From NCBI GenBank assembly GCA_964291285.2, contig OZ219787.1, forward strand, positions 1,536,001 to 1,600,000: a stretch of 64,000 nt of DNA, read 5' to 3'. Shown here piece by piece: positions 1-19,668 of this stretch (positions are counted from its first letter, which is position 1; each line of letters opens with the position of its first letter). This stretch comes from Alphaproteobacteria bacterium. Its GTDB lineage: Bacteria > Pseudomonadota > Alphaproteobacteria > Bin95. Under the pieces are notes generated by a model, which worked only from the letters and a program-made list of their open reading frames with translations, was not told where the DNA came from and searched no databases. Made by a program: the position numbers and the translations under genes.

Positions 1-3000
1 AGCGCGAATGGCCGGCGGTGTTCGACGCTGCATCGAGAGCCGAGGCCGCCGTCCATGCCGACCCGCGGACGGCCTGCTTCTACGCCCGCCGCGCATTGGA
101 GCTAGCGGTGAACTGGGCCTACAAGCACGACGCGGCGCTCCGGCTGCCCTATCGGGACAACCTTTCGGCCCTGATCCACGAGCCGAGCTTCAAGCAGGCC
201 GCTGGCGATGCGGTGTTCAGCAAGGCCAGGGTCATCAACACGCTGGGCAATCGCGCGGTGCACGGCTATCGCGCAGTGCCGGAAGCTGACGCGCTGGCGG
301 CGCTGCGCGAACTCTTCCACGTGACCTATTGGTTTGCCCGAACCTACGCCCGCGCCGCGCGCCCAGCGCCTGGACTTACGTTTGATCCTGCGGCGCTGCC
401 CCGCCCTGCGGTGACCAGTCGGAAGACTGCGGAGCAATTGCGGGCGCTCGAGGGCGGACTCCGGGAGCGCGACGAGAAGCTCACGACGCTGCTCGCGGAC
501 AAGGGTGCTCTCGACGAGGAGCTCAAGCGCCTGCGGTCCGAGGTGGCCGAGGCCAAGAAGGAAGCGGCCGCTCAACCGGACACGCACGACTACTCCGAAG
601 CGGAGACTCGCGACTACTTCATAGATCTGTTGCTGAAAGAAGCCGGCTGGCCGCTCAATCAGGATCGCGATCGCGAGTTCGAGGTCAGCGGGATGCCGAA
701 TGCCACGGGCCAAGGCTTCGTGGATTACGTCCTTTGGGGTGACGACGGCAAGCCACTTGGGCTCGTCGAGGCCAAGCGCACGCGCCGGGATGCCCGCGTC
801 GGGCAGCGGCAGGCCGAACTCTACGCCGATTGCCTAGAATGCCAATTCGGGCAGCGGCCGATCATTTTCTACTCGAACGGCTATGAGCATTGGATCTGGG
901 ACGACATACGCTATCCGCCGCGCAGCGTGCAAGGCTTCTACAAGAAGGAGGAGCTGGAGCTCCTGATCCAAAGGCGGGAGACGCGGCGCTCGCTGGCGGA
1001 AGCCACGATTAATTCGGAGATCGTCGAGCGCCACTACCAGACGCGTGCTATTCGCCGCATTGGGGAGGCCTTCGAGCGCGACCACGACCGCAAGGCCCTG
1101 CTCGTGATGGCGACGGGTGCTGGCAAGACACGCACGGTGATCGCGCTCTCCGACCTGCTCATGCGTTGCAACTGGGCCAAGCGCGTGCTTTTCCTCGCCG
1201 ACCGGGTAGCGCTGGTGAATCAGGCGGTCAATGCCTTCAAGCGTCACTTACCCGATGCCTCACCCGTCAACTTGGTTACCGAGAGAAACGTCGAGGGACG
1301 AGTCTACGTCTCGACCTATCCGACCATGATGGGGCTCATCGACGAGGCGAGAGATGGCGAGCGTCGCTTCGGGGTGGGTCATTTCGACCTGGTGATTATC
1401 GACGAGGCACACCGCTCGGTATTCCAGAAGTACCGCGCCATCTTCGACTACTTTGATTCGCTGCTGGTCGGGCTCACGGCGACTCCCAAGGATGAAGTAG
1501 ACCGCAATACCTACAGCTTGTTCGAACTGGAGAACGGAGTGCCGACCGACGCTTACTCCTTGGAGGAGGCTGTGCGTGACGGCTACCTCGTGCCCCCCAA
1601 GGCCGTCTCGGTGCCGCTCAAGTTCCAGCGCGAGGGCATCACGTACAACGAGTTGTCGGAGGACGAAAAGGACCAGTGGGACGCGCTGGAATGGGACGAC
1701 GACGGCACTGTGCCCGACCGGGTCGCGGCCGAGGCGGTCAACAAGTGGCTGTTCAATAGGGACACCGTGGACAAGGTGCTGGAGCACCTTATGACCCGTG
1801 GCCTCGCGGTCGCCGGCGGCGACCAGCTTGCCAAGACAATCCTTTTCGCCAAGAACCAGGAGCATGCGGAGTTCATCGCCGAGCGCTTCAACGCCAACTA
1901 TCCGCACTACAAAGGCGCGTTCGGACGTGTCATTACCTTCAAGACGGAGTACGCGCAGAGCCTCATCGATAACTTCTCGAACAAGGAGAAAGACCCACAC
2001 CTCGCGATTTCGGTGGACATGCTCGACACCGGCATCGACATCCCCGAGGTCGTGAACCTGGTTTTCTTCAAGCTGGTGCGCTCGAAGACCAAATTCTGGC
2101 AGATGGTGGGACGCGGCACGCGGCTCTGTCCTGATCTGTTCGGCCCAGACCAAGACAAGGAATTATTCTATATCTTCGACTATTGCCAAAACCTCGAATA
2201 TTTCAGCCAAGACATCCCGGCTACCGATGGCTCGGTCATCGAACCGCTCGGCAAGCGCCTGTTCAATGCGCGGTTGGAATTGATTGCGACATTGGACCAT
2301 CATGCTTGGGAAGGCGAATCGGATGAGCTCAAAGAGCCCGCGTCCTCCTACGGCGATCCAGAAACGAACGCCGCGGTTCGTCGATCTCTCGCCGATCTCT
2401 TGCACCGCGAAGTCGTGGCGATGAATGTGAACAACTTCGTGGTGCGCCCACAGCGGCGACTCGTCGAGAAATATGCGAAGCCTGAAGTCTGGGTGTCACT
2501 GCCGGCAGAGGCCCTGACTGAGCTCTCGAACGAATTAGCCGGACTGCCTTCGGAGTTAGACCCGGAGAAGGAGGAGGCCAAGCGGTTCGACCTGCTCGTG
2601 CTGAATCTGCAGCTCAGCCTCCTGCGACACGAGCCCGGCTTTGCCCGGCTGTGCGACCGGGTCAAGCAAATTGCCGCACTGCTTGAGGAAAAAGCCGCTA
2701 TCCCGATGGTGCAGGCCCAGATGGCGCTCATCCAGGACATACAGGCCGACGAGTGGTGGCAGGACGTCACTGTCCCGATGCTGGAAGTCATGCGTCGCCG
2801 GCTCCGGAGCCTGGTCCAGTTTATCGACAAGCAACAACGTAGGCCGGTCTACACGGATTTCGAGGACCTCATGGGCGGTGAGACAGCCGTGGACCTGCCC
2901 GGCCTCGCCCCCGGCACGGACTACGCGAAGTTCTTGGCCAAGGTACGTGCATTTCTTCGCGACCACATGGACCATGTCGCCATTGCAAAACTGAGATTGA

Positions 3001-3392
3001 ACAGACCGCTCACGGCGACCGACCTCTCAGAGCTGGAGCGGATGCTCATCGAGAGTGGCCTCGGCGGGGCGAGCGAGCTTCAACGTGCGGCAGAGGAGTC
3101 CCAGGGACTCGGATTGTTCGTGCGGTCGTTGGTAGGCATGGATCGCAGTGCTGCTAAGGAGGCCATGAAGACGTTCCTTGTGGGTAAGTCACTCTCGGCC
3201 AACCAGATCGAGTTCGTGAACCTCATCGTCGATCACCTTACGGAGCACGGCATTGTCGCTCCTGATCGTCTCTACGAATCCCCGTTCACCGACATCACGC
3301 CTCACGGACCGGATGGCTTGTTTCGGCCTGAGGAATTGGATGAATTGATGCAGGTGCTCAAGACTCTGCGAGACGCAGCCATTGCGGCATGA
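1..3392 (+). CDS. hsdR: Type I restriction-modification endonuclease subunit R (EcoEI-like DEAD-box helicase/nuclease); 5' end probably just upstream of the window
   Basis: Nuclease motif VDYVLW...VEAKR, Walker A MATGAGKT, DEAHRS, LTATP, QMVGRGTR and C-terminal LYESPFT. The frame is open back to the window edge (REWPAVFDAA). Confidence 0.93.
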   Translation, partial: REWPAVFDAASRAEAAVHADPRTACFYARRALELAVNWAYKHDAALRLPYRDNLSALIHEPSFKQAAGDAVFSKARVINTLGNRAVHGYRAVPEADALAALRELFHVTYWFARTYARAARPAPGLTFDPAALPRPAVTSRKTAEQLRALEGGLRERDEKLTTLLADKGALDEELKRLRSEVAEAKKEAAAQPDTHDYSEAETRDYFIDLLLKEAGWPLNQDRDREFEVSGMPNATGQGFVDYVLWGDDGKPLGLVEAKRTRRDARVGQRQAELYADCLECQFGQRPIIFYSNGYEHWIWDDIRYPPRSVQGFYKKEELELLIQRRETRRSLAEATINSEIVERHYQTRAIRRIGEAFERDHDRKALLVMATGAGKTRTVIALSDLLMRCNWAKRVLFLADRVALVNQAVNAFKRHLPDASPVNLVTERNVEGRVYVSTYPTMMGLIDEARDGERRFGVGHFDLVIIDEAHRSVFQKYRAIFDYFDSLLVGLTATPKDEVDRNTYSLFELENGVPTDAYSLEEAVRDGYLVPPKAVSVPLKFQREGITYNELSEDEKDQWDALEWDDDGTVPDRVAAEAVNKWLFNRDTVDKVLEHLMTRGLAVAGGDQLAKTILFAKNQEHAEFIAERFNANYPHYKGAFGRVITFKTEYAQSLIDNFSNKEKDPHLAISVDMLDTGIDIPEVVNLVFFKLVRSKTKFWQMVGRGTRLCPDLFGPDQDKELFYIFDYCQNLEYFSQDIPATDGSVIEPLGKRLFNARLELIATLDHHAWEGESDELKEPASSYGDPETNAAVRRSLADLLHREVVAMNVNNFVVRPQRRLVEKYAKPEVWVSLPAEALTELSNELAGLPSELDPEKEEAKRFDLLVLNLQLSLLRHEPGFARLCDRVKQIAALLEEKAAIPMVQAQMALIQDIQADEWWQDVTVPMLEVMRRRLRSLVQFIDKQQRRPVYTDFEDLMGGETAVDLPGLAPGTDYAKFLAKVRAFLRDHMDHVAIAKLRLNRPLTATDLSELERMLIESGLGGASELQRAAEESQGLGLFVRSLVGMDRSAAKEAMKTFLVGKSLSANQIEFVNLIVDHLTEHGIVAPDRLYESPFTDITPHGPDGLFRPEELDELMQVLKTLRDAAIAA

Positions 3393-4342
3393 CCGCGATG
3401 CCGACGCCGGACGTAGGCCTTCGCGGGGACAGGGGTGTTCATATGGAGACGGCCTGGCGGAGCGCCCTGGGCAAGGATTGCCGGGGCAGCCGCCCGCGAT
3501 GCATCCGGCTTGTGGATGGGACGAGAGGCGAGGTTGCAGCCCGACTGACTGGCCTTGTCGGTCTTCCGGAAGTGGTGGTCACGGAAAGAGACTTCTGGAT
3601 GCCCTACGGGAAACCGGTGTGGGCGAACGGGCAGTGGGATAAGAAACCTGCGGCAGAGACCCGGCTTGACCGTGACGCCGGCTTCCTCGCCCCGGAATTG
3701 CGGCGACGGCTCCAACGCTGGTGGCTGGAGGTTCCGAAGGGAGCGAATACTCCGAACTGGGATCTGGCCGCCACTTGCCGGATCGAAGGAAGAAAAGGCC
3801 TGCTCCTCGTGGAAGCTAAGGCTCACACGAACGAGCTGTCGGATGCCGGCAAGTCGACGTCGGCCAAGGAGAACGGGCGGCGGAACCACAAGCGGATCGG
3901 TTCAGCGATCGAGGAGGCTCGAAGTGGTCTCGGACGCCTGCCGGGCGGATCATGGGGCCTCTCCCGGGACGCTTGCTATCAGCTGTCCAACCGGTTCGCA
4001 TGGTCCTGGGAGCTGGCCATGCTCGGAGTGCCTGTCGTTCTGGTCTATCTCGGCTTCCTGAACGCCGAAGACATGGCGAGGGATGGCACGCCGTTCCGGT
4101 CGGGGGATGATTGGGCCACCGCCATGAAGAAGCACGCACGAGGGATCGTGCCCGAAACCTGCTGGGGACGGCGGCTGGTCCTGAACGGTACGCCCTTCAT
4201 ACCATTAATCCGAGCATTGCATGTACCGTTGACGCCGAACGTGCAGCAGCCGCCCTCCTCGTGGAAACACTCCGCCGTCGAGGACGACGACGTCAGATTG
4301 CGTCCCCCGGCGACCATGGCACCCTCTTGCGATCGTTCCTAG
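3389..4342 (+). CDS. Hypothetical protein, putative PD-(D/E)XK nuclease
   Basis: PNWDL...LLVEAKAH motif and YQLSNR. ATGA overlap with the hsdR stop. Exact start and the C-terminal tail are uncertain. Confidence 0.55.
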   Translation: MTAMPTPDVGLRGDRGVHMETAWRSALGKDCRGSRPRCIRLVDGTRGEVAARLTGLVGLPEVVVTERDFWMPYGKPVWANGQWDKKPAAETRLDRDAGFLAPELRRRLQRWWLEVPKGANTPNWDLAATCRIEGRKGLLLVEAKAHTNELSDAGKSTSAKENGRRNHKRIGSAIEEARSGLGRLPGGSWGLSRDACYQLSNRFAWSWELAMLGVPVVLVYLGFLNAEDMARDGTPFRSGDDWATAMKKHARGIVPETCWGRRLVLNGTPFIPLIRALHVPLTPNVQQPPSSWKHSAVEDDDVRLRPPATMAPSCDRS

Positions 4343-4412
4343 ACTCGACTAATTTGCCAACCGGTGCTACTCAAAAGCGTCCATGAGCCCAGCGATGAGG
4401 AACGATAATATC

Positions 4413-4616
4413 ATGGATCACATCCTATTGGCACGTGCAACGCGCAAGCCATATGCTGAATCTCCCGAGATTGAAGCCGGCGTCCGCTACGACAGCGAAA
4501 AAGGGTACTGGCTGTCAGGCGCGGAGCCTCTAGTTTCAACTGACAACTTCCTTGCGACTGACCCCACCACAAAGAAATGTGATGTGGAAACCGGCGAAGA
4601 CCAGAAAGGCGAATGA
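4413..4616 (+). CDS. Putative graspetide (ATP-grasp RiPP) precursor peptide
   Basis: Short ORF (ATG 4413; alternative 4383) with a T/K/D/E-rich C-terminus TDPTTKKCDVETGEDQKGE. Its stop overlaps the ATP-grasp ATG (ATGA). Confidence 0.75.
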   Translation: MDHILLARATRKPYAESPEIEAGVRYDSEKGYWLSGAEPLVSTDNFLATDPTTKKCDVETGEDQKGE

Positions 4617-5554
4617 CACCTCGCGTCCTTATCCTATCTGGCCTCTATGATTTTTCGACCGACTTAGTCGTACTCGAGCTGGAAAGGGCGCGTGTTCCAT
4701 ATCTAAGGGTCAACCGCGAACATCTCTCTGAGCACCTGTTTGCCCTTGATCCCATTGCAGAAGAGCTCCGGGTTACAGGCCCGTCCGGTCGATCTATAGT
4801 TGGCCCTGACTTGGCTTCGGTATGGTTCCGACAGCCGGTTTTTTTGCGAAATACTCCATCTACACCACTATCTCCGTATGAGCAACTTGAGCGTTCCCAA
4901 TGGACAGCATTCATGAGGGCTCTCTGCGTTTTCCAGAATGCTCATTGGGTGAATCATCCTGCTGCTACCTATATCGCAGAGTCTAAACCATATCAGCTGT
5001 CAGTGGCTTCCCGATGCGGCTTTCAGGTTCCTAAGACATTTGCTACCAATGACGTCTCTATAGTTCACACCGAATTCCCAGATCAGCTAATAGTAAAATC
5101 CTTGGATACCGTTTTGCTAAGGGATGGCGACGATTGTCTATTTACATATACCACTGTTGCGGATGGATCTACTCTATCCGCTGCTGAGGTAAAGCCTGTT
5201 CCAATGCTTGCACAGAGATACCTGAAGGACAAAAGCGACTTGCGAGTCACTGTTATCGGTGATACAATCTTCGCAGTACGAATTTTGTCTGATGGCGATG
5301 GGATCGTTGGGGATTGGCGAACCCTACCAAAGGAACAACTACAGTATGTTGATATGGAGCTCGACGAAAACACAAAAAAATCATGTTTTGCCCTTACCAG
5401 TGTTCTCAATCTGTCATTTGCGGCGATTGACTTAGTGGATACGCCGCATGGTATCTTTTTCGTTGAGATAAATCCGACAGGTGAATGGGGATGGTTATCA
5501 AAAAAAGATAGGCGCATAGATGTAGCAATAGCGTCTGCATTAGCTTGCCCATAA
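4613..5554 (+). CDS. MvdC/MvdD-like ATP-grasp peptide maturase
   Basis: Motifs SVWFRQP, WVNHP...ESKPYQL, VPKTFATND, DLRVTVIG, DWR, FAAIDL, FFVEINPTGEWGWL. Confidence 0.9.
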   Translation: MTPRVLILSGLYDFSTDLVVLELERARVPYLRVNREHLSEHLFALDPIAEELRVTGPSGRSIVGPDLASVWFRQPVFLRNTPSTPLSPYEQLERSQWTAFMRALCVFQNAHWVNHPAATYIAESKPYQLSVASRCGFQVPKTFATNDVSIVHTEFPDQLIVKSLDTVLLRDGDDCLFTYTTVADGSTLSAAEVKPVPMLAQRYLKDKSDLRVTVIGDTIFAVRILSDGDGIVGDWRTLPKEQLQYVDMELDENTKKSCFALTSVLNLSFAAIDLVDTPHGIFFVEINPTGEWGWLSKKDRRIDVAIASALACP

Positions 5555-5563
5555 TGCGGTAAC

Positions 5564-6238
5564 ATGGGACATCCATTTGCAGCTCGATGCGTTGAAGAAT
5601 TGGTTCCGTTTCTTCAGTATTTCCGCGCCAAAAAGAAGTTGCTTGAAAAATGTTCACAGCAGGACATATTGTTATCGGAAGAATTTACGGAGTACAAAAC
5701 ACTTGACGAGGAGACTCTTGCGGAAAGAATAAAAGATGAGCGTATTCGCGCAATTGCGCTTGACGAAAAGACATTCAAATTCACTATGGCTTTTACTATA
5801 ACTTTTGCAGTGTTTGCACTTGCAGTGTCTTTAGTTGTCCGTGGAAACCACCCAGAGTATGTCATTGTAGCGGCAGCGCCAGGAGTACTTTACCTCTTCG
5901 GAGCGGGGTTTCTAGCCCTTGGAGCAATGAGGACATTGCCATCGTATGGATACGGTACACATTTCAAGCTTCTTGTCAGAGAGCGCAAGGTTGCAGCGTT
6001 GGCGGAGGCGTTGGCTCGTCAGGAAACCATGAATCTGGTGCGACACGTGAGAAACGAAACGTCGCTTATGGCGGCACGAAATGGCTTCGTATGGATTGGC
6101 GCCTGTTTAGTCGTGTTGGTAATCGCGGCAGTCCTAGAAGTATCGGGGTTGAACGAAATGCTGCAAGGACCGTCGGGGCCGAGCCGGTGTTGGACTAGCA
6201 ATAACTGGGTCGGCGACGAGGCCGGGAGCATGACATGA
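5564..6238 (+). CDS. Hypothetical membrane protein (about 3 TM helices)
   Basis: Three hydrophobic segments; starts 10 nt after the ATP-grasp gene; same lower-GC composition. Confidence 0.75.
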   Translation: MGHPFAARCVEELVPFLQYFRAKKKLLEKCSQQDILLSEEFTEYKTLDEETLAERIKDERIRAIALDEKTFKFTMAFTITFAVFALAVSLVVRGNHPEYVIVAAAPGVLYLFGAGFLALGAMRTLPSYGYGTHFKLLVRERKVAALAEALARQETMNLVRHVRNETSLMAARNGFVWIGACLVVLVIAAVLEVSGLNEMLQGPSGPSRCWTSNNWVGDEAGSMT

Positions 6239-6355
6239 CGGAGAACCGGAGTAAGGGGAACGAAGACAGCCTTTGGCACAAGGTTGATAAAGCTGAGGCG
6301 GTCGCGTTTGGTCGTGTCCCCAGGGGTGGTGTAGGAGCTGAAGCTTCCGGTGGTA

Positions 6356-6423
6356 GCTGTGGGTAAGTGGCCCGCCGCCGCGACCGTCTGGAGTCAGGCG
6401 GCGGCGGGCCACTTACCCACAGC
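6356..6423. repeat. Perfect 26-bp inverted repeat (16-nt loop) in the IS256 leader
   Basis: GCTGTGGGTAAGTGGCCCGCCGCCGC at 6356-6381 and its reverse complement at 6398-6423. Confidence 0.9.
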
Positions 6424-6488
6424 GGAGGCCATCGCGGTGCCGGTTAGGGTTGGGCTGTCACAGTCCACCTGACCGGAGGAGTACCACG

Positions 6489-7691
6489 ATGACCACCACC
6501 GACATGATGACCCTGCGGGCGCTGTTGGAGAAGAGTTCCGACGCCGACCTGCTTCGCGAGATGATCGGGTTCACGGCCGCGCGTCTGATGGCGCTTGAGG
6601 TTGAGGGCCTTGCGGGCGCCGCGCACGGCGAGCGCTCGCCGGACCGGATCACGCAGCGCAACGGCTACCGGGACCGGGTCTGGGAGACGCGGGCCGGCAC
6701 GGTCGAACTGAAGATCCCGAAGCTGCGCAAGGGGAGCTACTTCCCGGGCTTCCTTGAACCGCGGCGGATGGCGGAGAAGGCGCTGACGGCGGTGATCCAG
6801 GAGGCCTACATCAAGGGCGTATCGACCCGCTCGGTGGACGACCTGGTGCAGGCGATGGGCATGTCGGGCATCTCCAAGAGCCAGGTGTCGCGGCTGTGCG
6901 GCGAGATCGACGACAAGATCCGCGACTTCCTCGACCGGCCGCTGGAGGGCGACTGGCCGTATCTCTGGCTTGACGCGACCTATGTGAAGATGCGCGAGGC
7001 CGGGCGCGTCGTCTCGGTCGCGGTCACCATCGCGGTGGCGGTCAACGATCAGGGCCGGCGCGAGGTGCTCGGCATGGCGATCGGCGCGTCCGAGGCCGAG
7101 ACCTTCTGGACCGACTTCCTGCGCTCGCTCGCCCGCCGCGGCCTGCGCGGCGTCAAGCTGGTGATCTCCGACGACCACAAGGGCCTGAAGGCCGCCGCCA
7201 CCCGCATCTTCGGCGCCACCTGGCAGAGATGCCGCGTCCACTTCATGCGCAACCTGCTCGCCCATGCCGGCAAGCAGGGCCGGCGCGTCGTCTCCGCCTT
7301 CGTCACTACCGCCTTCGCCCAGGAGGATGCAGACAGCGCCTCCGCCCAGTGGCGCCAGGTCGCCGACCAGCTCAGGCCCAAGGCGCCAAAGCTCGCCGCC
7401 ATCATGGACGAGGCCGAGCACGATGTTCTCGCCTACATGACCTTCCCGGCCGCGCACCGCGCCAAGCTGCACTCGACAAACCCGCTCGAACGCCTCCACG
7501 GCGAGATCAAGCGGCGCACAAACACCGTCGGCATCTTCCCCAACGAGGACGCCATCACCCGGCTGATCGGCGCAATCCTGCTCGAGCAGAACGATGAATG
7601 GGCAGTCCAGAGAGCCAGATACATGACACTGGAATCCATCGCTCCCGTGAGCGACAATACAACCGTCAAGTTGCCCGCCGTGGCAGCCTGA
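6489..7691 (+). CDS. IS256-family transposase
   Basis: [30 protein letters not shown] and STNPLERL motifs; GGAGG RBS. Confidence 0.97.
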
Positions 7692-8727
7692 GCGTTCCGG
7701 CCCTACCCGCCGGACACCGCTACGGACGCCAGGCTCTTACACCACCCGCGGGGGCACGATCTCGCGTTTCGACGAAGGATGGGTAGAGTGGGGAATAGGT
7801 TGAGGTCGCACTTGGTTCGTCTTGCGAAGGTGCAGGAGGAGGCGGGTGGCGGCGTGGCAGGACACCTGAGTGGCGGTGCAACGCTTATAAGGTCAGGAGA
7901 CCGAAGGGGTCTGCTGACGGCGGCACATAACGTAGTGTGCAAATTTCCAAGAAAAACGACGTCGTTTATTGGTCAATCTATGGAGGTATTGGTAGGAACA
8001 TTTCGGCCAAATCAGATGGCCGTGGTTACAGTGGACTTATCAGGTGCGGTAATAGAGGGGGGAATATATGAACGAGGGGATGAAAGGGAGATCGGGCCAG
8101 ACATAGCTTGGATTCCATTGGATGACGACTCGGCAAATAGAATTGAAAAATATGGACGAGTCTTCTTTAACTTGCACGAGGGTAGATTTCCGGGGATTGT
8201 GGACAAGGATAGTACAGCCGTCGAAACAAATGGTGGCATGTATGTTGGATATTTAGTTACCGGGTTTAGCGGAGTGCGGGAAGAAATTGTTCGACATGAG
8301 CATGGGCCAGGTATTTTGGAGCTTGCTCAGGATGTATATCCATATGAGGATCGGTGGAGGGCTGGAGGGTGGGATTATGAAATTAGAGTTATTGAGGACG
8401 GTAGCGAGGTCGATGATGAGAATTTCATTTTAGATTTGAGTCTTCCGCAAGCTGTCCGAAGTAGGATCCCGACTCGGGTGGAGAGATTGGGTGGTCTAAG
8501 CGGTGGTGGGTTATGGATATTTGGGGAAGACAAGGATTTGAGACAATATGTGGATCTGGTCGGAGTGGTATGGTACCAGAGCGGCAGTCATGAGCACGAC
8601 ACTTCGCTTCGTATTGTGAACCATGGAAGGGCGAGTATAGATCGCATCATCGGCGGCAAGAGGACAGGGTGATAGGGGAACTGGTTCATACGGGAGCGGT
8701 TATGGCTAATCGGCCGCCCTCACCCAT

Positions 8728-9903
8728 TTAGTTGCTGTGCAAACCACCCGCCATCGCCGCGGCGATGGTCGTTCCGACGCGCTCCGCTGCGCTCTCGACT
8801 TCGCGGTCTCCGACGTGGGCATACCGCAGCGTCATGGTCGGCTGCGTATGACCAAGCATTCTGGCGACGGTCGGCAGGGGAACGCCCCGGGCCACGGCCT
8901 GGCTCGCTACGGTATGGCGCAAATCGTGCAGGCGCACATCCTCGATCTCGGCTTCTCGCCGCGCGCGTTGCCAAAGCCCGAGATTACGCGACTGCGGCCT
9001 CGCCGGGTCCCTGGGCGAGGGAAAGACGAAGGCGCTTCCCGTTCGCGGCTGGCGGGCGATGATGGCCTGCGCCGCCTCGCTCAGCCAGACCGTGCGCGGC
9101 CCGGTTTTGGCCTCGGCCAATCTGAGCATGTCGCTATCGACCTCCGACCATCTGAGCGTCAGGATTTCACTCTTCCGGCAGCCGGTCAGCAAAAGCAGGC
9201 GGACGACGTCGGCCTGCGGCAGGCGCGAGGGCCGTTTCTCCACCAGCCGGTCCAGGGTCCGGTGAAGCCGGGCTATCTCTTCCGCGGACAGGAAGCGGGT
9301 CATCTTCCGGCCCGGGTTCGGCCTGACACCTGCAAGCGGATCGGTCCCGACATGGCCGGCGATTTTCGCGGCACTGACGATCTGGCGCAACACGACAAGC
9401 GCGATGTTGGCCGTGCCCGGCGTCTTGCGGCTCATGTTGTCGAACCAGCGTTCAACATGAGGCCTGCCGATGCGGTCGAGGCGAAGCGCCCCGAAGGCGG
9501 GCAGAAGCCGGGTCCGGATCATGCGGTCCACACGCTCGCCCCAGCCTTGGCTGTAATGGCCCCGGCGTGCCGGCAGCCAGTCCTCCATGACGAAATCCCG
9601 GAAAAGGGGGACGGCAGCCCGGCCGGCAGGGTCTCCGGAGCAAAGCGGATGCGAGCCGTCCAGCAGGGACCGGCATGTGATCCGGGCTTCTGCCACCGTG
9701 GTCAGCGCGGCCGCGCCGATGGTCGTCCGCACCGGCCTGCCGTTCACGGTCCCATGCCAGACGAAACTGCGATGCCCGGAAGGACGGACCCGCACGCCCA
9801 GCCCGGCAACGCGAATGTCCCTGACGATGTATTCGGTACTGCCGGGACGCAGTTTCCTGACAGCGGCGTCCGTCAGGCGGACCTTCTTCGCCTTGCCCGT
9901 CAT
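8728..9903 (-). CDS. Tyrosine recombinase/integrase (second of pair, element 1)
   Basis: N-terminal arm-binding-like domain; LLTGCRKSEI, HDLRH, LGH and RYAH catalytic motifs. Confidence 0.95.
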   Translation of the reverse strand: MTGKAKKVRLTDAAVRKLRPGSTEYIVRDIRVAGLGVRVRPSGHRSFVWHGTVNGRPVRTTIGAAALTTVAEARITCRSLLDGSHPLCSGDPAGRAAVPLFRDFVMEDWLPARRGHYSQGWGERVDRMIRTRLLPAFGALRLDRIGRPHVERWFDNMSRKTPGTANIALVVLRQIVSAAKIAGHVGTDPLAGVRPNPGRKMTRFLSAEEIARLHRTLDRLVEKRPSRLPQADVVRLLLLTGCRKSEILTLRWSEVDSDMLRLAEAKTGPRTVWLSEAAQAIIARQPRTGSAFVFPSPRDPARPQSRNLGLWQRARREAEIEDVRLHDLRHTVASQAVARGVPLPTVARMLGHTQPTMTLRYAHVGDREVESAAERVGTTIAAAMAGGLHSN

Positions 9904-11027
9904 GACTGCGCGCCCGAGAGCAACGGCGCCAGCGCCTCGACCGTCTCCCGGACCGTGGCGTCCGAGAGATGCGCGTATTTCAGCGTCGTCGCCGCGTTGT
10001 CATGGCCCAGCAGCCGCCCCACCGTGCGGATCGTCTCGCCGCTCGACAGCGCCATGCTGGCGTAGCTGTGCCGCGTGTCATGAAGGCGCATGTCGTCAAG
10101 GCCTGCCTCGGCGCGCAGCTGTATCCAGAAGGCGTCCAGCCAGCCCCATGGCGTGCTCCAGCCTCCAATAGGGAACACGAAGCGCGACGAACGCGGCAGG
10201 CCATCGAGGACCTCCCGCGCCGCTTCGCACAACCAGACCGTGCGGGGACCGGTCTTCGAATCGGCCAGATAGAGCCTGCCGTCGCGGTAGAAGCGCCATT
10301 CGAGGGTGACGATCTCCGACTTCCGGCAGCCGGTCAGCAGCAGCAGGCGCAAGGCCGCAACCCGGAACGGTTGCCGGGCCTCATGCCGGTCCAGCGCCAT
10401 GCCAAGGCGGCGGTATTCCTCCGGCGACAGGAATCGCTCCGACCGCTTCTGCCGGTAACGCCGGATGCCCTTGCAGGGATTGCCGCCGTCGGGCCGATAC
10501 CCCCACGCCTCGGCCTGCTGCATGATGACGGAAAGAATAGGCGCCGAACGGTTGGCTGCCGCTGGTGTCGCATGGAGGGAGCGGAACCAGCGCTGCACCT
10601 CCTCCCGGTCGATCTCGGCGACAGGCCGGCCCGCGAAGAAGGGCAGGATCTGGTTTTGCAGATAGCGGCGGTTGACGGCGAGCGTGCGCGGCTTCCAGCG
10701 CCTGCCGTAGCGGGTGAAGACCTCCTCGGCGACGGTCTCGAACAGCGCGTCTCCGGATACCTCCGCTTCGACATCCCTGTCGTCCCGGAGCGCGGCCAGC
10801 ATGGTCCGGGCGCGGGCACGCGCCTCGGCCTCGGTCATGACCGCCGCATCGCCGACGATCTTCCAGACCCGGTGGCCCCGGTGCTGGCTGTGGATGAAGT
10901 AGCGTTTCGTGCCCGAAGGCATGATGCGGACGCCGTATCCCTTCAGTTCGGCGTCCCTGACATTGCGGACGGTCTTGCGGGGCCGGAGGGTATCGACCCG
11001 GCGCTGGGTGAGGCGGATGGCTGCCAC
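9900..11027 (-). CDS. Tyrosine recombinase/integrase (first of pair, element 1)
   Basis: LLTGCRKSEI, HDTRH, LGH and KYAH motifs; GTG start aligned with the paralogue at 43157; ATGA overlap with the partner gene. Confidence 0.93.
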   Translation of the reverse strand: MAAIRLTQRRVDTLRPRKTVRNVRDAELKGYGVRIMPSGTKRYFIHSQHRGHRVWKIVGDAAVMTEAEARARARTMLAALRDDRDVEAEVSGDALFETVAEEVFTRYGRRWKPRTLAVNRRYLQNQILPFFAGRPVAEIDREEVQRWFRSLHATPAAANRSAPILSVIMQQAEAWGYRPDGGNPCKGIRRYRQKRSERFLSPEEYRRLGMALDRHEARQPFRVAALRLLLLTGCRKSEIVTLEWRFYRDGRLYLADSKTGPRTVWLCEAAREVLDGLPRSSRFVFPIGGWSTPWGWLDAFWIQLRAEAGLDDMRLHDTRHSYASMALSSGETIRTVGRLLGHDNAATTLKYAHLSDATVRETVEALAPLLSGAQS

Positions 11028-11116
11028 GATTGCGGTTCCCCGATCAGTTGCACGGTGTGCAAAGCCGGATTCGCTCCAACGCCCCGGTTGCACCGGAAAC
11101 GGGAAAATTCCACAAT

Positions 11117-11145
11117 CATGTCAGATGGTTAGCACCGCAGGTGCG
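11117..11145 (-). mobile_element. Terminus of tandem-integrase element 1
   Basis: Minus strand CGCACCTGCGGTGCTAACCATCTGACATG nearly matches the element 2 end CGCACCGGTGGGTGCTAACTATCTGACATG at 43038. Confidence 0.75.
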
Positions 11146-11261
11146 GCGAGATGTGTGTGTGCGTTAGGCTCGGGGACGGGGACAGGCGGGGTCCGGGGGG
11201 ATGATTGAGATTGCGAACGAGTCTGCTTCAGCCCGAACGGAATGCGCCCTTGTCCATCCCC

Positions 11262-11471
11262 CTACGCCGCCTTCCGTGCGCCTTCCTTCTTCGGAAGATT
11301 GAACAGGCGGGCAGCGTTTCGGCCGAGGATGTTGCGCTTCTGGTCTTCGGTGAGGAACGGGATGTCGTAGATCGCGCGCGGTGCCGAACTGAATATCTCC
11401 AGCCTTGCCACATCGCAGCGCCGACACAGCGCGGCCAGTTCTTCCTTCTTGTCGGCGGTGACGGCTTGCAT
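11262..11471 (-). pseudogene. Chimeric remnant: MNT-type nucleotidyltransferase N-terminus joined to an amidohydrolase C-terminus
   Basis: DKKEELAALCRRCDVARLEIFSS (MNT-like) followed directly by IYDIPFLTEDQKRNILGRNAARLFNL (amidohydrolase_2-like end). Confidence 0.6.
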
Positions 11472-11592
11472 GGCGCCGACCTCCCGCAATTGTGAAACGC
11501 AGGGCCCCCTGCAGCTTCGGACCGTACGTACTGCAAGCCGGGACGCAAGCATCGCACTGGCCCGGCAATTGGAACGATGAACTCCCTGCACC

Positions 11593-12459
11593 CTACACGG
11601 GCCGGTCGCCCTCTATCTGGATGCGGCGCATGTCTCGGCGGTAGCCGGAATAGTCGTTGATGGCGGCGTGCTTGAGGCAGCGATTGTCCCAGAGCGTCAA
11701 GGTGCCCGGCTCCCAGGAGACGCGGCAGGTTAGCTCCACGCGCTCGCCCGCGGCGTAGAGATAGTCCAGCAGCGGCGTGCTCTCGGCCTCGGTCATGCCC
11801 TCGAAGCGGATGGTGTAGGCGCGGTTGACAAAGAGGCCCTTGCGCCCGGTGTCGGGATGAGTGCGGACCACCGGGTGCAGGCTCTCGGTCGGCCGCCAGG
11901 CGTCGTCCTCGCGGTTCCTGGTCGAGCGCAGCGCGTTGAAGTTCGTCGCCGGCCCGGCGACGCGGGTGTCGTTATGCACGGCGCGCATGTCCGAAAGCGT
12001 GGCCTTCATGCCGTCCGACAGGAGGTCCCAGGCGCCCTGCTGGTCCGCGAACAGCGTGTCGCCGCCGGCGGGCGGCACCTCGAGGGCATAGAGCGCCGAG
12101 CCGAGCGGCGGCTTCTCCAGGCAGGTGGTGTCGGTGTGCCAGTTTTCGCCGACCGCCGCCTTGTCGTCGGGCTCCTTGCGGATCGCGATGACCTCGGGAT
12201 GCTTGCCGTCGGCGATCAGGTTCGGATGCACGATCAGCGGGCCGAAGCGCAGGCCGAAGGCCATCAGCGCTTCCTCGTCCATCTTCTGGTCGCGGAAGCA
12301 GAGCACCTTGTGGCGCAGGAAAGTCTCCCGCACCGCCGCGAAGCCTTCACCGTCGAGCGCCGTGAGGTCGATGCCCCGCACCTCGGCCCCGCAGGACCCG
12401 GAAAGCGGCTTCACCTGCATATCCGCCAATCCCTGAATTCCATCCGGCATGTCACGCAT
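11593..12459 (-). CDS. TauD/TfdA-family 2-oxoglutarate dioxygenase
   Basis: WHTDT, GGDTLFAD, HPVVRTHP and WDNRCLKH motifs. Confidence 0.93.
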   Translation of the reverse strand: MRDMPDGIQGLADMQVKPLSGSCGAEVRGIDLTALDGEGFAAVRETFLRHKVLCFRDQKMDEEALMAFGLRFGPLIVHPNLIADGKHPEVIAIRKEPDDKAAVGENWHTDTTCLEKPPLGSALYALEVPPAGGDTLFADQQGAWDLLSDGMKATLSDMRAVHNDTRVAGPATNFNALRSTRNREDDAWRPTESLHPVVRTHPDTGRKGLFVNRAYTIRFEGMTEAESTPLLDYLYAAGERVELTCRVSWEPGTLTLWDNRCLKHAAINDYSGYRRDMRRIQIEGDRPV

Positions 12460-13789
12460 CCTCCGTCTCGCGGCGAAGATACCACGGCGTCTTCCCCGGA
12501 TCGCGCCGTTTGCGGCGGGCCGGTTTGGGAGCCGGTTCCGGCTTGGGCGGGGCCTTCGCCTCCGGCTTCGTCCCGGCCCTGGCCTTCGGAGCGGCGCGCG
12601 CCCTGGGCTTTACCTCCGGCTTCGGCGCGGGCGGCTCGTCCTTCTTCGCGGCGGCGCGGCGGCTCGGCCGCTTCGGCGCGGGTGCCGCTGCGCTCTCAGC
12701 AGCGGGCGCGGCGCGGAAGGCCTCCAGCGCGTCGAGGTCGAAGGAGAAGCCGAGGCCCGGCCTGTCGGGAATCCGGGCCCGGCCGTCCTCGAATTCGATC
12801 GTCTCGCCGAACAGCCGGGCCGACCAGGGCATGTATTCCAACAGGTCGCAATTATGGAGCGCGCCGCAAAGCTGCAGCGACGCCTCGGAATAAAGGTGCG
12901 GCGAGACCGGCAGGTCCCAGGCCTGCGCCATGTGCCCGACACGCATGAACTCGGTGACGCCGCCGACGCGCCCGAGGTCCGGCATCAGCACGTCCGCCGC
13001 CTTCGCCTCGATCAGCGGGCGGAAGCCGTAGCGGGTGTATTCGGTCTCTCCGGTGGCGATGGGCGTGTCGAGCGCGGCGGCGAGCGCGGCGTGGCCGGCG
13101 ACATTGTACGCCGGCACCGGCTCCTCGAACCAGTCGAGGCCGACCGGCTCCAGGGCGCGGCCGAGCCGGAGCGCGTGCCTGACGTCGAGGCCCTGGTTTG
13201 CGTCCGCCATCAGCCGGATATCGGGGCCGACGGCGTCGCGAATCGCCTCGGCGCGCTCGACATCCTCCTGCCAGCGCGGCTTGCCGAGCCGCATCTTCAT
13301 GGCGCGGAAGCCCTGCTTCAGGAACGTCTTCGCCTCGGCGACGAGCTCGTCCCGCGAGCGCGAGAGCCAGAGCCCGCCGCTGTGATAGGCCGGCACGGCG
13401 TCGCGGCAGGAGCCGAGCAGGCGGTGGGCCGGCTGGCCGAGCGCCTTGCCGCGCGCATCCCAGAGCGCCATGTCGAGCGCGGAGAGCGCGAACAGCGGCA
13501 CGCCCTTGTGGCCGACGAAGTTCACCTCGGTCCAGAGCCTGTGCCAGATGCCCTCGATCCGGTGCGCGTCCTCGCCGACGAGCGACTGGCCGAGGACGGC
13601 GGTCATCGCTTCCAGCGGCGCCAGGTGCCTCGCCGGGAGCGAGAAGAGGTGGCCCTCCCCGGTCACCCCCGCCTCGGTATCGACGAAGACCAGCACATAG
13701 CCGATCGAACGGATATCGTGGACCGCGGTGATGACGGGCTCCTCCAGCGGCACGTCCACCGTCATCGTGCGAATACCGGTAATCTTCAT
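12452..13789 (-). CDS. Mandelate racemase/muconate lactonizing enolase-superfamily enzyme with a basic low-complexity C-terminal tail
   Basis: KMRLG, MADAN, WFEEP, ATGE and PDRPGLG motifs. Confidence 0.9.
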   Translation of the reverse strand: MKITGIRTMTVDVPLEEPVITAVHDIRSIGYVLVFVDTEAGVTGEGHLFSLPARHLAPLEAMTAVLGQSLVGEDAHRIEGIWHRLWTEVNFVGHKGVPLFALSALDMALWDARGKALGQPAHRLLGSCRDAVPAYHSGGLWLSRSRDELVAEAKTFLKQGFRAMKMRLGKPRWQEDVERAEAIRDAVGPDIRLMADANQGLDVRHALRLGRALEPVGLDWFEEPVPAYNVAGHAALAAALDTPIATGETEYTRYGFRPLIEAKAADVLMPDLGRVGGVTEFMRVGHMAQAWDLPVSPHLYSEASLQLCGALHNCDLLEYMPWSARLFGETIEFEDGRARIPDRPGLGFSFDLDALEAFRAAPAAESAAAPAPKRPSRRAAAKKDEPPAPKPEVKPRARAAPKARAGTKPEAKAPPKPEPAPKPARRKRRDPGKTPWYLRRETEDA

Positions 13790-13972
13790 CCCTGCTTTTG
13801 CCTCCGGGAAAACGCCGGGCCCCCAACCCGTCTCAGCCTCCCAGCCTAGCTTGACAGGGCGGGGGAGGGGAAGCGGCCGGACAGCGCGGTCACGAAACAT
13901 CCAGATCGAAGACGGGAATATCCATGGCGCGGGCGGTGGCAGTCTTGTCAATCGCGCTCAATCCGGGGGCAG

Positions 13973-14821
13973 TCAGGAGCCCGCAGGCTCCACCGCGATA
14001 TTGTCGATCAGCCTTGCGCGGCCGAGACGGGCGGCGGCGAGCAGACGGGCGGGGCGGTCGAGGCGCTGCATGGGCGCGAGGTCTTCCGCGTCGCGAAGCT
14101 CGACATAATCGACGGCGGAGAAGCCGGCTGCGGCGATCTCCGCGGCGGCCTCGGCGAGGCAGCGCGCATCCTCGCCGTTCCGCAGGCGCCGGGCGGCCAT
14201 GACGAGCGCGCGGTGGAGCGCCGGGGCGCATGCGCGTTCCTCCGGGCCGAGCAGGGCGTTGCGGGAGGAGAGCGCGAGGCCGTCCGGGTCGCGCACGGTC
14301 GGGCAGCCGACGATCTCGACAGGGAGGTCGAGGTCGCCGACCATGCGGCGGACCGCGGCGAGCTGCTGGTAGTCCTTCTCGCCGAAGAAGGCGAAGTCCG
14401 CACCGGTCTGGATCAGCAGCTTGGAGACGACCGTCGCCACGCCGTCGAAATGGCCCGGCCGGTCCGCGCCGCAAAGGCCCTCGGTGACGCCGGAGACGGA
14501 GATGTTCGTCGCGAATCCCGCCGGGTACATGACTTCCGGCGGCGGCGCGAAAAGCAGGTCGACGCCATAAGGGGCGAGCTTCCCGCGGTCGTCCTCCTCG
14601 GTGCGCGGATAGCGGACGAGGTCCGCCGCGTCGTTGAACTGCTTCGGGTTGACGAAGAGTGTGACGATGGTGCGGTCGGCGCGCCCGCGGCTGGCGGCAA
14701 CGAGGCTCAGGTGCCCGGCGTGGAGCGCGCCCATGGTGGGCACGACGCCGATGCTGCAGCCCGACCGGCGCCAGGCGCTGGCGAGGCGGCGAAGGTCCTG
14801 CACGGTGCGGGAGGTGAGCAT
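13973..14821 (-). CDS. panC: Pantoate-beta-alanine ligase
   Basis: [27 protein letters not shown] and RLIDN motifs. Confidence 0.97.
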
Positions 14822-14885
14822 GGCGCGGGAACAGTCCCGCAAACCGTCTGGCCCGGCAAGCGGGGATGTGGGAATGTCGCCGCCC

Positions 14886-16067: not shown

Positions 16068-16329
16068 GTCACGGGTAGCGTTTAGATTCTCTCGTTGCAC
16101 CGCTTTCAGAACCGTATCGCCATGCTTCGTCCGATCTCCTCTCTGCTCGCTGCTGCCGTGTTATTCTGCTCAGCACTGGCATCGGCCCAAGAGGTTACCG
16201 GCTATGATCGGTTTAACCTGTGGAACGACTGCGGGCCTATGAATCTGGTAGTCGAGAGCTTACCAAAGGGGGCTGCTGACATTGGATTGGAAGAAGAGGC
16301 GATAGCAACATCCGTGCGCAGTAGGCTTA

Positions 16330-17204: not shown

Positions 17205-17207
17205 TAG
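16426..17207 (+). CDS. IS5-family transposase (orfA/orfB, probable -1 frameshift at AAAAGGGGG 16749-16757)
   Basis: WRALPERFGHWNTVW and DST in orfA; GRSRGGFSTKIH, ADKGYD and KRFKRIA in orfB. Confidence 0.9.
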
Positions 17208-17503
17208 GGCGGCGCGGATTTACAGTTCTACGGCCGAGCCGTATCTTTATGTGAACGTAAACATTGTTGGCCCGGCATTTGGAATTGGAGTCTATTACAA
17301 CAAAGTATTACTGGATGCTGCATCGGGAGAATACAACTATGCCAAGACTTGGCAATCTGGCAGTACTGGGACGCATGGTAGGAATTCGAATTACGTCTTG
17401 TCATCGGTATCACAGCACACGGATCGATTCGTTGACGAATATCTCCGTGTAAATGACGAGGCGTGCAAGCGCTGATTGGGGACATGGTGGCAACATAAGC
17501 CAC

Positions 17504-18103: not shown

Positions 18104-18255
18104 GACGCGCCTCCCATGCTCGCCGGAACCGGCAGGATGAAACGCGCGGCCAGCCGGGGTCAAGCCGCCGGCTGGGGCCCCGCGCGCTTTCGCAGCGTTG
18201 ACCGGCGGCGGCGGGCGTGGCGTATTGGCGCCCTTGCCGCATGGGGGAGGAAACC

Positions 18256-19302: not shown

Positions 19303-19320
19303 TTTGACGAACGCCCTCCC

Positions 19321-19638: not shown

Positions 19639-19668
19639 TGCCGATTTCCTTCCCTTTTCCGTCTCCGC

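Follow-up and report, generated by a model that had tools for sequence, protein, structure and literature searches.

A group-7 graspetide cassette with an IS256-interrupted, predicted serine-peptidase gene in an alphaproteobacterial defence island

The first three of four genes at 4413-8672 of the window, i.e., of the 64,000-nt stretch of DNA that was analysed, form what their predicted products identify as a complete and intact group-7 (marinomonasin-type) graspetide cassette. In the window, this trio carries a rare trypsin-like protease as an extra fourth gene, which is unusual. The trio itself is already catalogued (graspetide group 7) with a characterised product, a point that the earlier note on this DNA had missed. 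As an explanation of the locus we favour, with a probability of about 0.5, a horizontally acquired group-7 cassette that is island cargo, plus a co-acquired, lineage-specific protease that may trim the leader.

Layout and setting of the cassette

All four low-GC genes point the same way, with a type I restriction gene upstream and two integrases downstream. Their open reading frames are the precursor (4383/4413-4616), the ligase (4613-5554), the TM protein (5564-6238), a 43-codon ORF starting at 6235 and a 297-codon ORF at 7779-8672. Precursor and ligase overlap by an ATGA at 4613-4616, the TM and serine-peptidase genes by another one at 6235-6238. That is, the ORF check finds both overlaps where they had been described (4613 and 6235), while the gap between ligase and TM gene is 9 nt (5555-5563) and not 10 nt. 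GC3 is 0.54, 0.42, 0.49 and 0.47 for cassette genes 1-4 versus 0.74-0.91 for the flanks; together with the ORF coordinates, this bears out the picture of four co-oriented, lower-GC, tightly coupled genes. Also in line with the earlier note, searches against Pfam and NCBIfam revealed no recognisable exporter within the cassette. As far as sequence can establish it, 4413-8672 is one horizontally acquired, mobile low-GC block; a search of 60 relatives, of which 16 belong to the same genus, did not recover the ligase, and copies of it are present on plasmids.

Upstream, hsdR (18-3392, forward strand; PADLOC REase_I, E=1.1e-169) is coupled by an ATGA overlap to a 317-aa ORF of host-like GC (3389-4342, forward strand). 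The latter belongs to no family, i.e., it has no Pfam, NCBIfam or PADLOC match, which leaves its former label as a nuclease unsupported, and no homologue of it was found in the 51 homologous loci discussed below. Downstream, two tandem tyrosine integrases on the reverse strand (8728-11093, i.e., 8728-9903 and 9900-11093; Phage_integrase, E=2.5e-23 and 2.9e-14) have host-like GC as well (GC3 0.80 and 0.84). No tRNA gene is found within positions 1-20000 of the window. The 20 kb upstream contain DndB, a DndC-like PAPS reductase, a DndD-like AAA_23 protein, DndE, an HsdS-like domain and transposases. With HsdR recognised by PADLOC and Dnd-like genes upstream, the proposed defence-island setting stands.

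The graspetide trio and its conservation

The precursor gene (4413-4616, forward strand) encodes 67 aa. A start at 4413 is supported by the length of its homologues (62-70 aa, most 67-68) and by a GAGGAA about 12 nt upstream. The leader is conserved (H-I-L-L..A..RKPY, G-Y-W), and the C-terminal core, which ends TTKKCDVETGEDQKGE, carries the near-invariant motif KK-D-ETGED-KGE. Invariant positions in the precursor alignment (A4) are H3, L5, G31, W33, K54, K55, D57, E59, G61, E62, D63 and K65. The features expected of a precursor of this family are present, namely the (T/S)KK-D-ETGED-KGE ending, a length of about 67 aa and the position directly upstream of the ligase, where a homologue is found in 51/51 loci. 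The same core occurs in 301 group 7 entries of the Carter 2026 SI table and is assigned to cluster171/gr_07 (= Lee gr_07) in the Makarova 2022 SI.

The ATP-grasp graspetide ligase (4613-5554, forward strand; 313 aa) is intact, single-copy in the genome and retains all invariant columns of its family alignment (A1). It matches the NCBIfam models TIGR04187 (E=2.8e-52), MvdC (2.3e-35) and MvdD (3.5e-25), each below the trusted cut-off, and Pfam RimK (E=5e-6). The TIGR04187 match and the catalogued core agree with the former reading as a graspetide precursor with an MvdC/D-type ligase. We found 1233 relatives; to the ligases of the 51 loci with group-7 precursors, Marinomonas fungiae included, it is 39-65% identical over the full length. 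Membership in the MvdC and MvdD equivalogs themselves was rejected, since scores of 122.3 and 88.8 bits are far under the trusted cut-offs of 425 and 475 bits, respectively.

The 3-TM partner protein (5564-6238, forward strand; 224 aa) follows the ligase in 47/51 loci, which confirms it as a genuine conserved neighbour. It belongs to no curated family, as Pfam, NCBIfam and PADLOC give no match; fold comparison gave nothing informative, and fused forms were not found. Its family alignment shows conserved juxtamembrane motifs, and the window copy aligns full-length. The AF2 model (pLDDT 89) contains three long helices (49-91, 97-120, 143-193). In a language-model comparison, one weak neighbour (score 0.90) has PycTM on 11% of members, which we regard as a lead only. 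We know of no function for this always-present membrane partner of group 7.

Across many phyla, precursor and ligase are found in 51/51 loci and the TM partner in 47/51, the four exceptions being three contig ends and one IS truncation. Beyond the trio, no gene cluster is common to more than 4 of the 51 loci. Cassette genes are broken in 3/51 (L015, with a split TM gene, L057 and L058 (ISL3)).

The closest characterised system is the marinomonasin cluster of M. fungiae JCM 18476 (group 7), which has the same three genes with the same order and overlaps. One of our loci (L029) is the M. fungiae genome, and its precursor is identical to the M. fungiae entry in the Carter 2026 SI. Identity to the window is 50% for the ligase, 48% for the precursor (with the same C-terminal core) and 27-31% for the TM partner. 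Leader and pre-core residues differ, the window's product is a predicted one, and the window adds the coupled serine-peptidase gene, which is found in 0/51 other loci. The cross-links of marinomonasin are reportedly one ester and two isopeptide bonds. PMC9576775 places marinomonasin-like Gra-3 in group 7 and describes marinomonasin as dehydrated three times. The microviridin system (MdnA with MdnB/MdnC = MvdC/MvdD; group 1) likewise uses ATP-grasp side-chain macrocyclisation of a leader-guided ribosomal peptide, but has two ligases where the window has one; the window cassette also has a different core motif and is without ABC transporter or acetyltransferase.

The serine-peptidase gene and its IS256 insertion

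The fourth gene is split by an insertion sequence. Its 5' fragment (6235-6309, forward strand; 25 codons), whose ATG overlaps the TM stop, is in the same frame as the 3' part (7770-8672, forward strand; 300 codons), which was recognised by its motifs, its AF2 fold and a GC3 of 0.47 like that of the trio. The element between them (6310-7761, forward strand) has a transposase ORF at 6450-7691 (Transposase_mut, E=1.6e-121; NF033543, E=1.5e-103) and imperfect terminal inverted repeats of 27 nt. On either side lies a copy of its 8-bp target duplication, TCGCGTTT (6302-6309 and 7762-7769). Its ends were set by comparing the flanks of 8 copies; at least 17 essentially identical copies are present in the genome, each with its own duplication. 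All features of the IS256 family are thus present, i.e., a Mutator-type transposase, inverted repeats, an 8-bp duplication and multiple copies.

Once the IS and one duplicate are taken out, a single frame runs through 6235-6309 and 7770-8672. An empty site is found in one contig each of X2 (same organism label, another sample) and X4 (a sponge metagenome), both of which join 6301 to 7762. The 1460 nt they skip (8 letters being ambiguous) equal the IS plus one duplicate. Furthermore, P0122, a homologue of 326 aa that is full-length and 82% identical, can be aligned by its N-terminus across the IS break. Frame, P0122 continuity, fold and IS-free contigs thus agree with the earlier note that the fourth gene is a trypsin-like protease rejoining the operon once the IS is removed. 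By these sequence comparisons, a recent IS256 insertion knocks out the protease gene in this strain, and the gene is intact in the sister sample. By its start/stop overlap and composition, the gene is translationally coupled to the TM gene and was co-acquired with the trio in this lineage.

In the peptidase family alignment (A2), TAAHN, PDIAW and GGLSGGG are conserved, with the His/Asp/Ser motifs in canonical order. Using the AF2 model (pLDDT 71.8, moderate confidence), Foldseek returns 261 matches at E<=0.001, among them tPA and thrombin at E=6e-7 to 1e-5 (prob 1.00). Every top match is a serine protease of the chymotrypsin fold, in most cases thrombin or tPA, with E down to 5.6e-7 and a TM-score of 0.36-0.53. 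Motif order and predicted fold class the product as a PA-clan (chymotrypsin-fold) serine peptidase. It resembles the PA clan and Trypsin_2 (PF13365) in these two respects and differs by about 60 extra, helical residues at the N-terminus and by the absence of any Pfam or PDB sequence match, both for the protein and for its family profile. No Pfam hit was obtained at E<=0.01, such that it does not count as a Trypsin_2 member; sub-threshold Trypsin_2 hits occur in 3/57 distant relatives and in 0/10 of the first 10. No signal peptide was seen. The family is rare and uncurated (28 close relatives; 9 representatives at E<=1e-30 among 1.84 billion) and not a housekeeping paralogue.

None of the 51 other loci has the protease, nor does any of the 5 module-bearing genomes that were searched in full, and it is therefore no part of the conserved system. 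We consider it a lineage-specific add-on for this reason, and maturation does not need it. For the same reason, the protease-centred "RiPP-gated" design of the earlier note is excluded as a general mechanism. The neighbourhood it expected around ATP-grasp homologues is found for the TM partner and for proximity to defence genes, but not for the protease.

Possible roles of the cassette

In our favoured explanation, the ligase would bind the conserved leader of the 67-aa precursor, as in MdnC/PsnB-type enzymology, and would spend ATP on tying Thr/Lys side chains of the core onto Asp/Glu, as in other graspetides. The product would carry three rings, as marinomonasin does. The conserved motifs of the TM partner, beside its membrane helices, are placed on the cytoplasmic side, where the protein would take over the modified peptide at the membrane, to export it, retain it or protect the cell from it, and would replace the missing ABC/peptidase exporter. 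The protease would be cytoplasmic and might act on the peptide, most likely by leader trimming, like the accessory proteases of several other graspetide groups. The cassette would be island cargo, with the restriction/Dnd adjacency reflecting mobile-cargo landing sites; by itself, this adjacency is no evidence of defence function.

The TIGR04187/MvdC/MvdD matches, the group-7 core, the 51-locus trio, the plasmid copies, GC3 and the IS-free form count in favour of this explanation. So does a precedent from Carter et al. 2026 (PMC13097080), according to which graspetide groups 9, 26, 30, 32 and 40 likewise have a peptidase gene beside the precursor-ligase pair, with proteases "involved in maturation or resistance". 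There it is a feature of the whole group, while in group 7 it is found in one sub-lineage only and stems from an uncurated PA-clan family. Against protease trimming counts that no cleavage site can be named. Against the favoured explanation also counts a core that is extremely conserved across phyla, unlike the usual diversifying secreted antimicrobial; none of the 51 loci has a recognised leader motif for secretion or recognised genes for a peptidase-transporter.

A further point against it is the neighbourhood of the trio, which also fits a conflict role. In at least 12/51 loci, a bona fide defence gene (RM, HmaB/HmaC, ThsB-TIR, PD-T7-4 or IetA/IetS) is no more than three genes away, a lower bound since 145/260 flank proteins were scanned with PADLOC. 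Five more loci adjoin TA genes (PIN, HicB, MqsR, SymE or MazF), and on a Martelella plasmid the cassette adjoins AbiEi/AbiEii. Homologous loci are thus often near defence genes, as the earlier note had expected. The trio could be an intracellular module for defence, abortive infection or addiction, in which the 3-TM protein damages the membrane as the effector and the cyclised peptide serves as its short-lived, ATP-dependent regulator. The protease would then be a further effector, or else a trigger that either destroys the peptide or is restrained by it. With such frequent restriction, Hma, Thoeris-TIR, Iet or TA neighbours we keep this reading, which we judge unlikely. Besides the HsdR and Dnd genes of the window, it draws on the lack of exporter and leader peptidase in all 51 loci, on movement of the cassette as a unit through variable islands, on the core being near-invariant across phyla, on the three loci with broken genes and, as a lead, on the PycTM neighbour. 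IetA/IetS and Pycsar PycTM resemble the cassette in island neighbourhood and in having a serine protease or small multi-helix membrane protein as candidate effector. On the other hand, none of the four proteins matches any PADLOC-DB 2.0 family at E<=0.01, and the IetA/IetS of L054 is a neighbour, not a homologue. Furthermore, about 21-25/51 loci have ordinary metabolic surroundings, and the defence-neighbour frequency is a raw count, not compared with a background rate, such that any enrichment lacks a control; islands of this kind collect mobile cargo whatever its function. Our literature searches connected graspetides with phage defence only through their occurrence as ICE cargo. Moreover, marinomonasin, the one characterised family member, was reportedly produced as a peptide in a heterologous host. 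Quite unlikely in our view is the stronger form, i.e., that the group-7 cassette is no secreted-peptide factory but an intracellular peptide/membrane-effector conflict module of defence islands. The ligase would keep a labile precursor cyclised with ATP, and the cyclic peptide would restrain the 3-TM protein and, here, the co-opted trypsin-like protease until infection or element loss releases them.

Two other readings concern the protease. It is improbable that it is the peptide's target and not its maturase, with the cyclised peptide inhibiting it, which would make it a self-resistance or decoy copy or the toxin of a toxin-antitoxin pair with the peptide as antitoxin. We know of no activity of marinomonasin, the protease family is rare and no housekeeping paralogue, and all other group-7 loci lack it. 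Its translational coupling and co-acquisition fit, and so does the IS knock-out in one strain versus an intact sister sample, as expected for a costly gene, although with at least 17 genomic IS copies the insertion here may be chance. Further support comes from the literature, in which characterised graspetides are mostly serine-protease inhibitors (PMC13097080; PMC11626197; bioRxiv preprint) and, according to Carter 2026 (PMC13097080), serine proteinases occur in more than half of the group 9 clusters as possible self-resistance genes. We likewise doubt that the protease has no functional tie to the graspetide and was separate island cargo abutting the cassette in the donor. The absence of co-occurrence would be explained, and its closest relative (P0122) has no matching ligase among the best 120 ligase hits, in which identity drops from 93% to 68%. 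Other loci also have unrelated genes tight behind the TM gene, e.g., an HmaB-type methylase with no gap after the TM stop (L011), GNAT (L033) or IetA/IetS (L054). Still, stop and start codons sharing an ATGA, and a GC3 like that of the trio, speak for an operon that has existed for some time, and two more samples have kept all four genes together.

Group 7 is large and phylum-spanning (301 catalogued precursors with the core, 1233 ligase relatives here), and we know of no biological role of its peptide. If the ordinary reading is right, the window adds one more member to a known biosynthetic family. An intracellular RiPP role would be new. The protease welded to the cassette is a concrete candidate interactor of the peptide, as maturase or target. 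Its gene is cut by an IS in one of two natural samples and intact in the other; if the peptide/membrane-effector module were true, the IS-carrying strain and the IS-free sister sample would be a natural knock-out pair for one effector.

A group 7 graspetide cassette within a defence island

The locus comprises four co-oriented genes on the plus strand, i.e., a small ORF for a graspetide precursor (4413-4616), an ATP-grasp ligase gene (4613-5554) whose ATG overlaps the precursor stop (ATGA), a gene for a membrane protein of 224 aa (5564-6238) that follows after a gap of 9 nt, and an interrupted fourth gene that starts at 6235, again with an ATGA overlap. Their GC3 values are, in order, 0.54, 0.42, 0.49 and 0.47, such that the block spans 0.42-0.54 compared to 0.74-0.91 in hsdR, the ORF at 3389-4342, the integrases and the IS. 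Upstream on the same strand lie hsdR of a type I restriction system (18-3392; PADLOC REase_I, E 1.1e-169) and, coupled to it via ATGA at 3389, a 317-aa ORF (3389-4342). Downstream, two tandem tyrosine integrase genes of host-like GC are encoded on the minus strand (8728-11093, with a 4-nt overlap at 9900-9903). The ORF and GC3 data bear out the earlier note's description of four co-oriented, lower-GC genes between HsdR and an integrase pair. The ATGA couplings it listed are present as well, while the 10-nt gap it reported between ligase and membrane gene measures 9 nt. Its label "nuclease" for the 317-aa ORF finds no support in Pfam, NCBIfam or PADLOC families, and the ORF has no homologue among the 51 other group 7 loci of our survey. 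Its GC is host-like, and it possibly encodes an as yet uncharacterised protein accessory to the type I system.

The placement inside a defence island is correct given hsdR and the 20 kb upstream of the window, where Dnd-like genes are accompanied by transposases and an HsdS-like domain. The Dnd-like phosphorothioation cluster occupies about 4250-12000 of this upstream stretch (L062, G000:C3:1516001-1536000) and encodes DndB, a DndC-like PAPS reductase, a DndD-like AAA_23 protein and a HerA/TrwB-like ATPase to which a DndE domain is fused. Beyond it lie the transposases and an ORF of 1055 aa that includes an HsdS-type domain. Repeats flanking the low-GC block amount to just one 9-mer, i.e., chance level, and no tRNA attachment site was found within window positions 1-20000 or within the 20 kb upstream. 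A promoter and terminator scan of the locus gave consensus matches only.

The ligase matches the models TIGR04187 (E 2.8e-52), MvdC (2.3e-35) and MvdD (3.5e-25). Every score is below the trusted cut-off, and the protein is therefore a relative and no member of these equivalogs. It is intact, i.e., all invariant alignment columns are kept, and 1233 relatives are present in the protein collection searched. Scanning one genome per species, we found the 51 loci of the survey, which are spread over Alpha-, Gamma- and 'Delta'-proteobacteria, Acidobacteriota, Chloroflexota, Bacteroidota, Bacillota, Poribacteria, Binatia and others. A precursor homologue is located directly 5' of the ligase in all 51, and a homologue of the membrane protein with its three transmembrane helices (3-TM) directly 3' of it in 47 (45 via tblastn, L054 and L056 via clustering); of the other four loci, three are cut by a contig end and one is truncated by an ISL3 element. 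Beyond these genes, all-against-all clustering of 668 crude ORFs revealed no further cluster common to more than four loci.

The precursors have 62-70 aa and are conserved end to end (mean column identity 54%), with H3, L5, G31, W33, K54, K55, D57, E59, G61, E62, D63 and K65 being invariant. The leader carries the motifs H-I-L-L..A.RKPY and G-Y-W, and the C-terminal core reads (T/S)KK-D-ETGED-KGE. An alternative start at 4383 was rejected, as homologue lengths and an SD site favour 4413. The core recurs in 301 'group 7' precursors within the supplementary table of Carter et al. 2026 (PMC13097080), where the Marinomonas fungiae precursor is identical to that of our locus L029. Among the precursor clusters of Makarova et al. 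2022 (PMC8939145), it is filed as cluster171, group gr_07 of Lee et al., and a passage of PMC9576775 assigns the marinomonasin-like peptide Gra-3 to group 7 and describes marinomonasin as dehydrated three times. Judged by sequence comparison, the first three genes (hereafter the trio) are a case of this catalogued family of marinomonasin-type graspetides. Marinomonasin is reportedly tricyclic, with 18 residues, one ester bond and two isopeptide bonds. The cassette is a further copy of known group 7, set apart by the coupled, rare PA-clan protease encoded by its fourth gene.

The 3-TM partner belongs to no curated family in Pfam, NCBIfam or PADLOC. Searching 41 of its homologues against Pfam at E<=1 returned scattered membrane-protein noise, the commonest match occurring in 5/41. 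Their alignment shows three hydrophobic helices with adjoining conserved polar motifs, i.e., EEH.RA..IDEKT.KF before helix 1, LGALKTLP.YGYGT after helix 2 and QE..N..R..RNE.AYQ..RNG before helix 3. Since the N-terminus has no signal sequence, we infer that all of these motifs face the cytoplasm, which is our reading and not a computed topology. In the AF2 model, which is confident (pLDDT 89), three long helices (49-91, 97-120, 143-193) reach well past a bilayer. Foldseek against the PDB gave no match to this model at E<=0.001, and VIA-align wide returned generic long-helix bundles only (best Z 8.8, under the meaningful level for helical proteins). Longer fused forms were not found, which is weak evidence, and PycTM on 11% of the members of its language-model neighbour cluster (score 0.90) serves as a lead only. 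The entry for cluster 40 in Makarova et al. 2022 (PMC8939145), an 'uncharacterized membrane protein' of 'unclear' role, is a candidate match.

A rare protease gene interrupted by an IS256 element

An IS256-family element with 27-nt terminal inverted repeats (6310-7761; ends set by flank comparison across eight copies) interrupts the fourth gene. Its transposase matches Transposase_mut (E 1.6e-121) and NF033543 (E 1.5e-103), and it is flanked by an 8-bp target duplication (6302-6309 and 7762-7769). Just inside its left end, we observe a perfect 26-nt inverted repeat (6356-6381 / 6398-6423). Full-length copies that are essentially identical number at least 17 in the genome, and about six more share 96% identity; together, they point to a recent burst. 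Removal of the IS and one duplicate joins 6235-6309 and 7770-8672 to a single frame of about 325 codons. The respective empty site exists in nature: in contigs from another sample of identical organism label (X2) and from a sponge metagenome (X4), 6301 is directly followed by 7762, with 1460 nt skipped (8 ambiguous letters), and contigs of a further run (X1) end at the IS ends. The expectation that the fourth gene joins the operon once the IS256 is removed agrees with both the restored frame and the IS-free form. The accessory protease has been inactivated by a recent IS insertion, and the trio is intact. Marine and sponge metagenome runs (X3, X4) provide contigs that match stretches of the cassette and of the protease gene at about 97-100% identity (window 3000-9800), and therefore the element or its host is present in such samples.

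The closest protease homologue (P0122, 326 aa, 82% identical) aligns unbroken across the IS break, and full-length relatives mostly have 296-338 aa. In an alignment of 28 sequences, TAAHN, PDIAW and GGLSGGG are conserved, and their order is the canonical one of His, Asp and Ser. The protease has no Pfam match (sub-threshold Trypsin_2 matches occur in only 3/57 relatives), and its family profile finds no relative among PDB sequences. Its AF2 model (pLDDT 71.8) is matched by Foldseek to chymotrypsin-fold proteases, with tPA and thrombin at E 5.6e-7 to 1e-5 (probability 1.00) and 261 matches at E<=0.001. In a divergent alignment, an acidic residue precedes the Ser by six positions; compared with Asp189 of trypsin, it may serve as a lead towards Lys/Arg specificity.

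The family is rare. A word-indexed protein search yielded 28 members, and representatives among 1.84 billion number 9 at E<=1e-30, 38 at 1e-10 and 314 at 1e-3. No homologue was found in the 51 group 7 loci, in complete searches of five genomes that bear the module, among plasmids, phages, IMG/VR and the metagenome contigs of JGI, or in 401 genomes of the phylum of the genome holding locus L015, and 400 other genomes of the own phylum gave one weak match with internal stops. The protease is therefore outside the conserved system. That it is a general leader peptidase of group 7 was rejected on the same 0/51 count.

Neighbourhood and mobility of the cassette elsewhere

The flanks of the cassette, with at most three crude ORFs taken per side (260 proteins in all), were compared to Pfam at E<=1e-5. 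Within three genes of the cassette, at least 12 of the 51 loci (L009, L011, L012, L013, L015, L021, L028, L030, L035, L038, L042, L054) show an RM gene, HmaB/HmaC, a ThsB-type TIR, PD-T7-4 or IetA/IetS, where PADLOC counts are lower bounds because just 145/260 flank proteins were scanned (E<=1e-15). Five more have a PIN, HicB, MqsR, SymE or MazF gene nearby. For nine more, the neighbours of note are limited to a transposase, integrase, resolvase or ICE gene, and the setting of about 21-25 loci is ordinary and metabolic. AbiEi/AbiEii and a UvrD helicase lie next to the cassette of a Martelella plasmid. As raw counts, these figures suggest, but do not demonstrate, an enrichment near defence genes.

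Some individual arrangements are close. An HmaB-type DUF1156 methylase starts right after the TM stop without a gap (L011:7954-11592), and an HmaC (DUF499) gene ends about 570 nt 5' of the precursor (L021:62-8564). In a Clostridiales MAG (L054:1472-6125), a complete same-strand IetA/IetS pair, i.e., an AAA ATPase and an S8 subtilase (PADLOC E 4e-95 and 1e-124), is located 3' of the cassette; this is a second serine protease gene just 3' of a cassette, from a family unrelated to that of the window.

The cassette is clearly mobile. The ligase is single-copy in the genome holding the window, and a search of 60 relatives, of which 16 are congeneric species, did not recover it. It is plasmid-borne in several Hyphomicrobiales and occurs once in IMG/VR. 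In Vibrio sagamiensis (L036:1586-4159) and an IMG/VR contig (L065:478-4149), a shared ORF of 274 aa and a phage-type lysozyme lie 3' of the cassette, a sign that a prophage-like element may carry it. Three loci have damaged cassette genes: a 1.5-kb insert with a 474-aa ORF of no family splits the TM gene (L015:7966-10372), precursor and ligase are degraded (L057:6788-8340), or an ISL3 transposase truncates the ligase (L058:3367-5388).

Possible roles of the cassette and its protease

We favour an ordinary biosynthetic reading of the cassette, with a probability of roughly 0.5. Following established graspetide enzymology, the ligase would form three side-chain rings in the core, guided by the leader and driven by ATP. 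From their architecture, the membrane partner would handle the peptide at the inner membrane face and the protease would act on the peptide. The protease might instead be an unrelated neighbour of the cassette. Its absence from all other group 7 loci is compatible with this; we argue, however, that in this lineage it shares the trio's transcription unit and acquisition, since the ATGA overlap, the matching GC3 and the persistence of all four genes, free of the IS, in two more samples link them. We thus regard an unrelated neighbour as improbable.

That protease and peptide form a protease-inhibitor pair agrees with this coupling; the protease was found in none of the 51 loci, and we give such a pair little credence. 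An intracellular conflict module, as proposed in the earlier note, is unlikely. Its defence-island context stands, while its protease-centred form does not: conservation of the protease next to homologous ligases, by which that note itself chose to judge the idea, is not observed. The interpretation given in that note is supported in part. A defence role, drawn from the genomic context, is less probable than the biosynthetic reading.

The value of the locus lies in the always-present membrane partner, which calls for an explanation, and in the repeated placement of the cassette in defence islands. Furthermore, the natural pair of IS-plus and IS-minus forms allows for testing the role of the protease.
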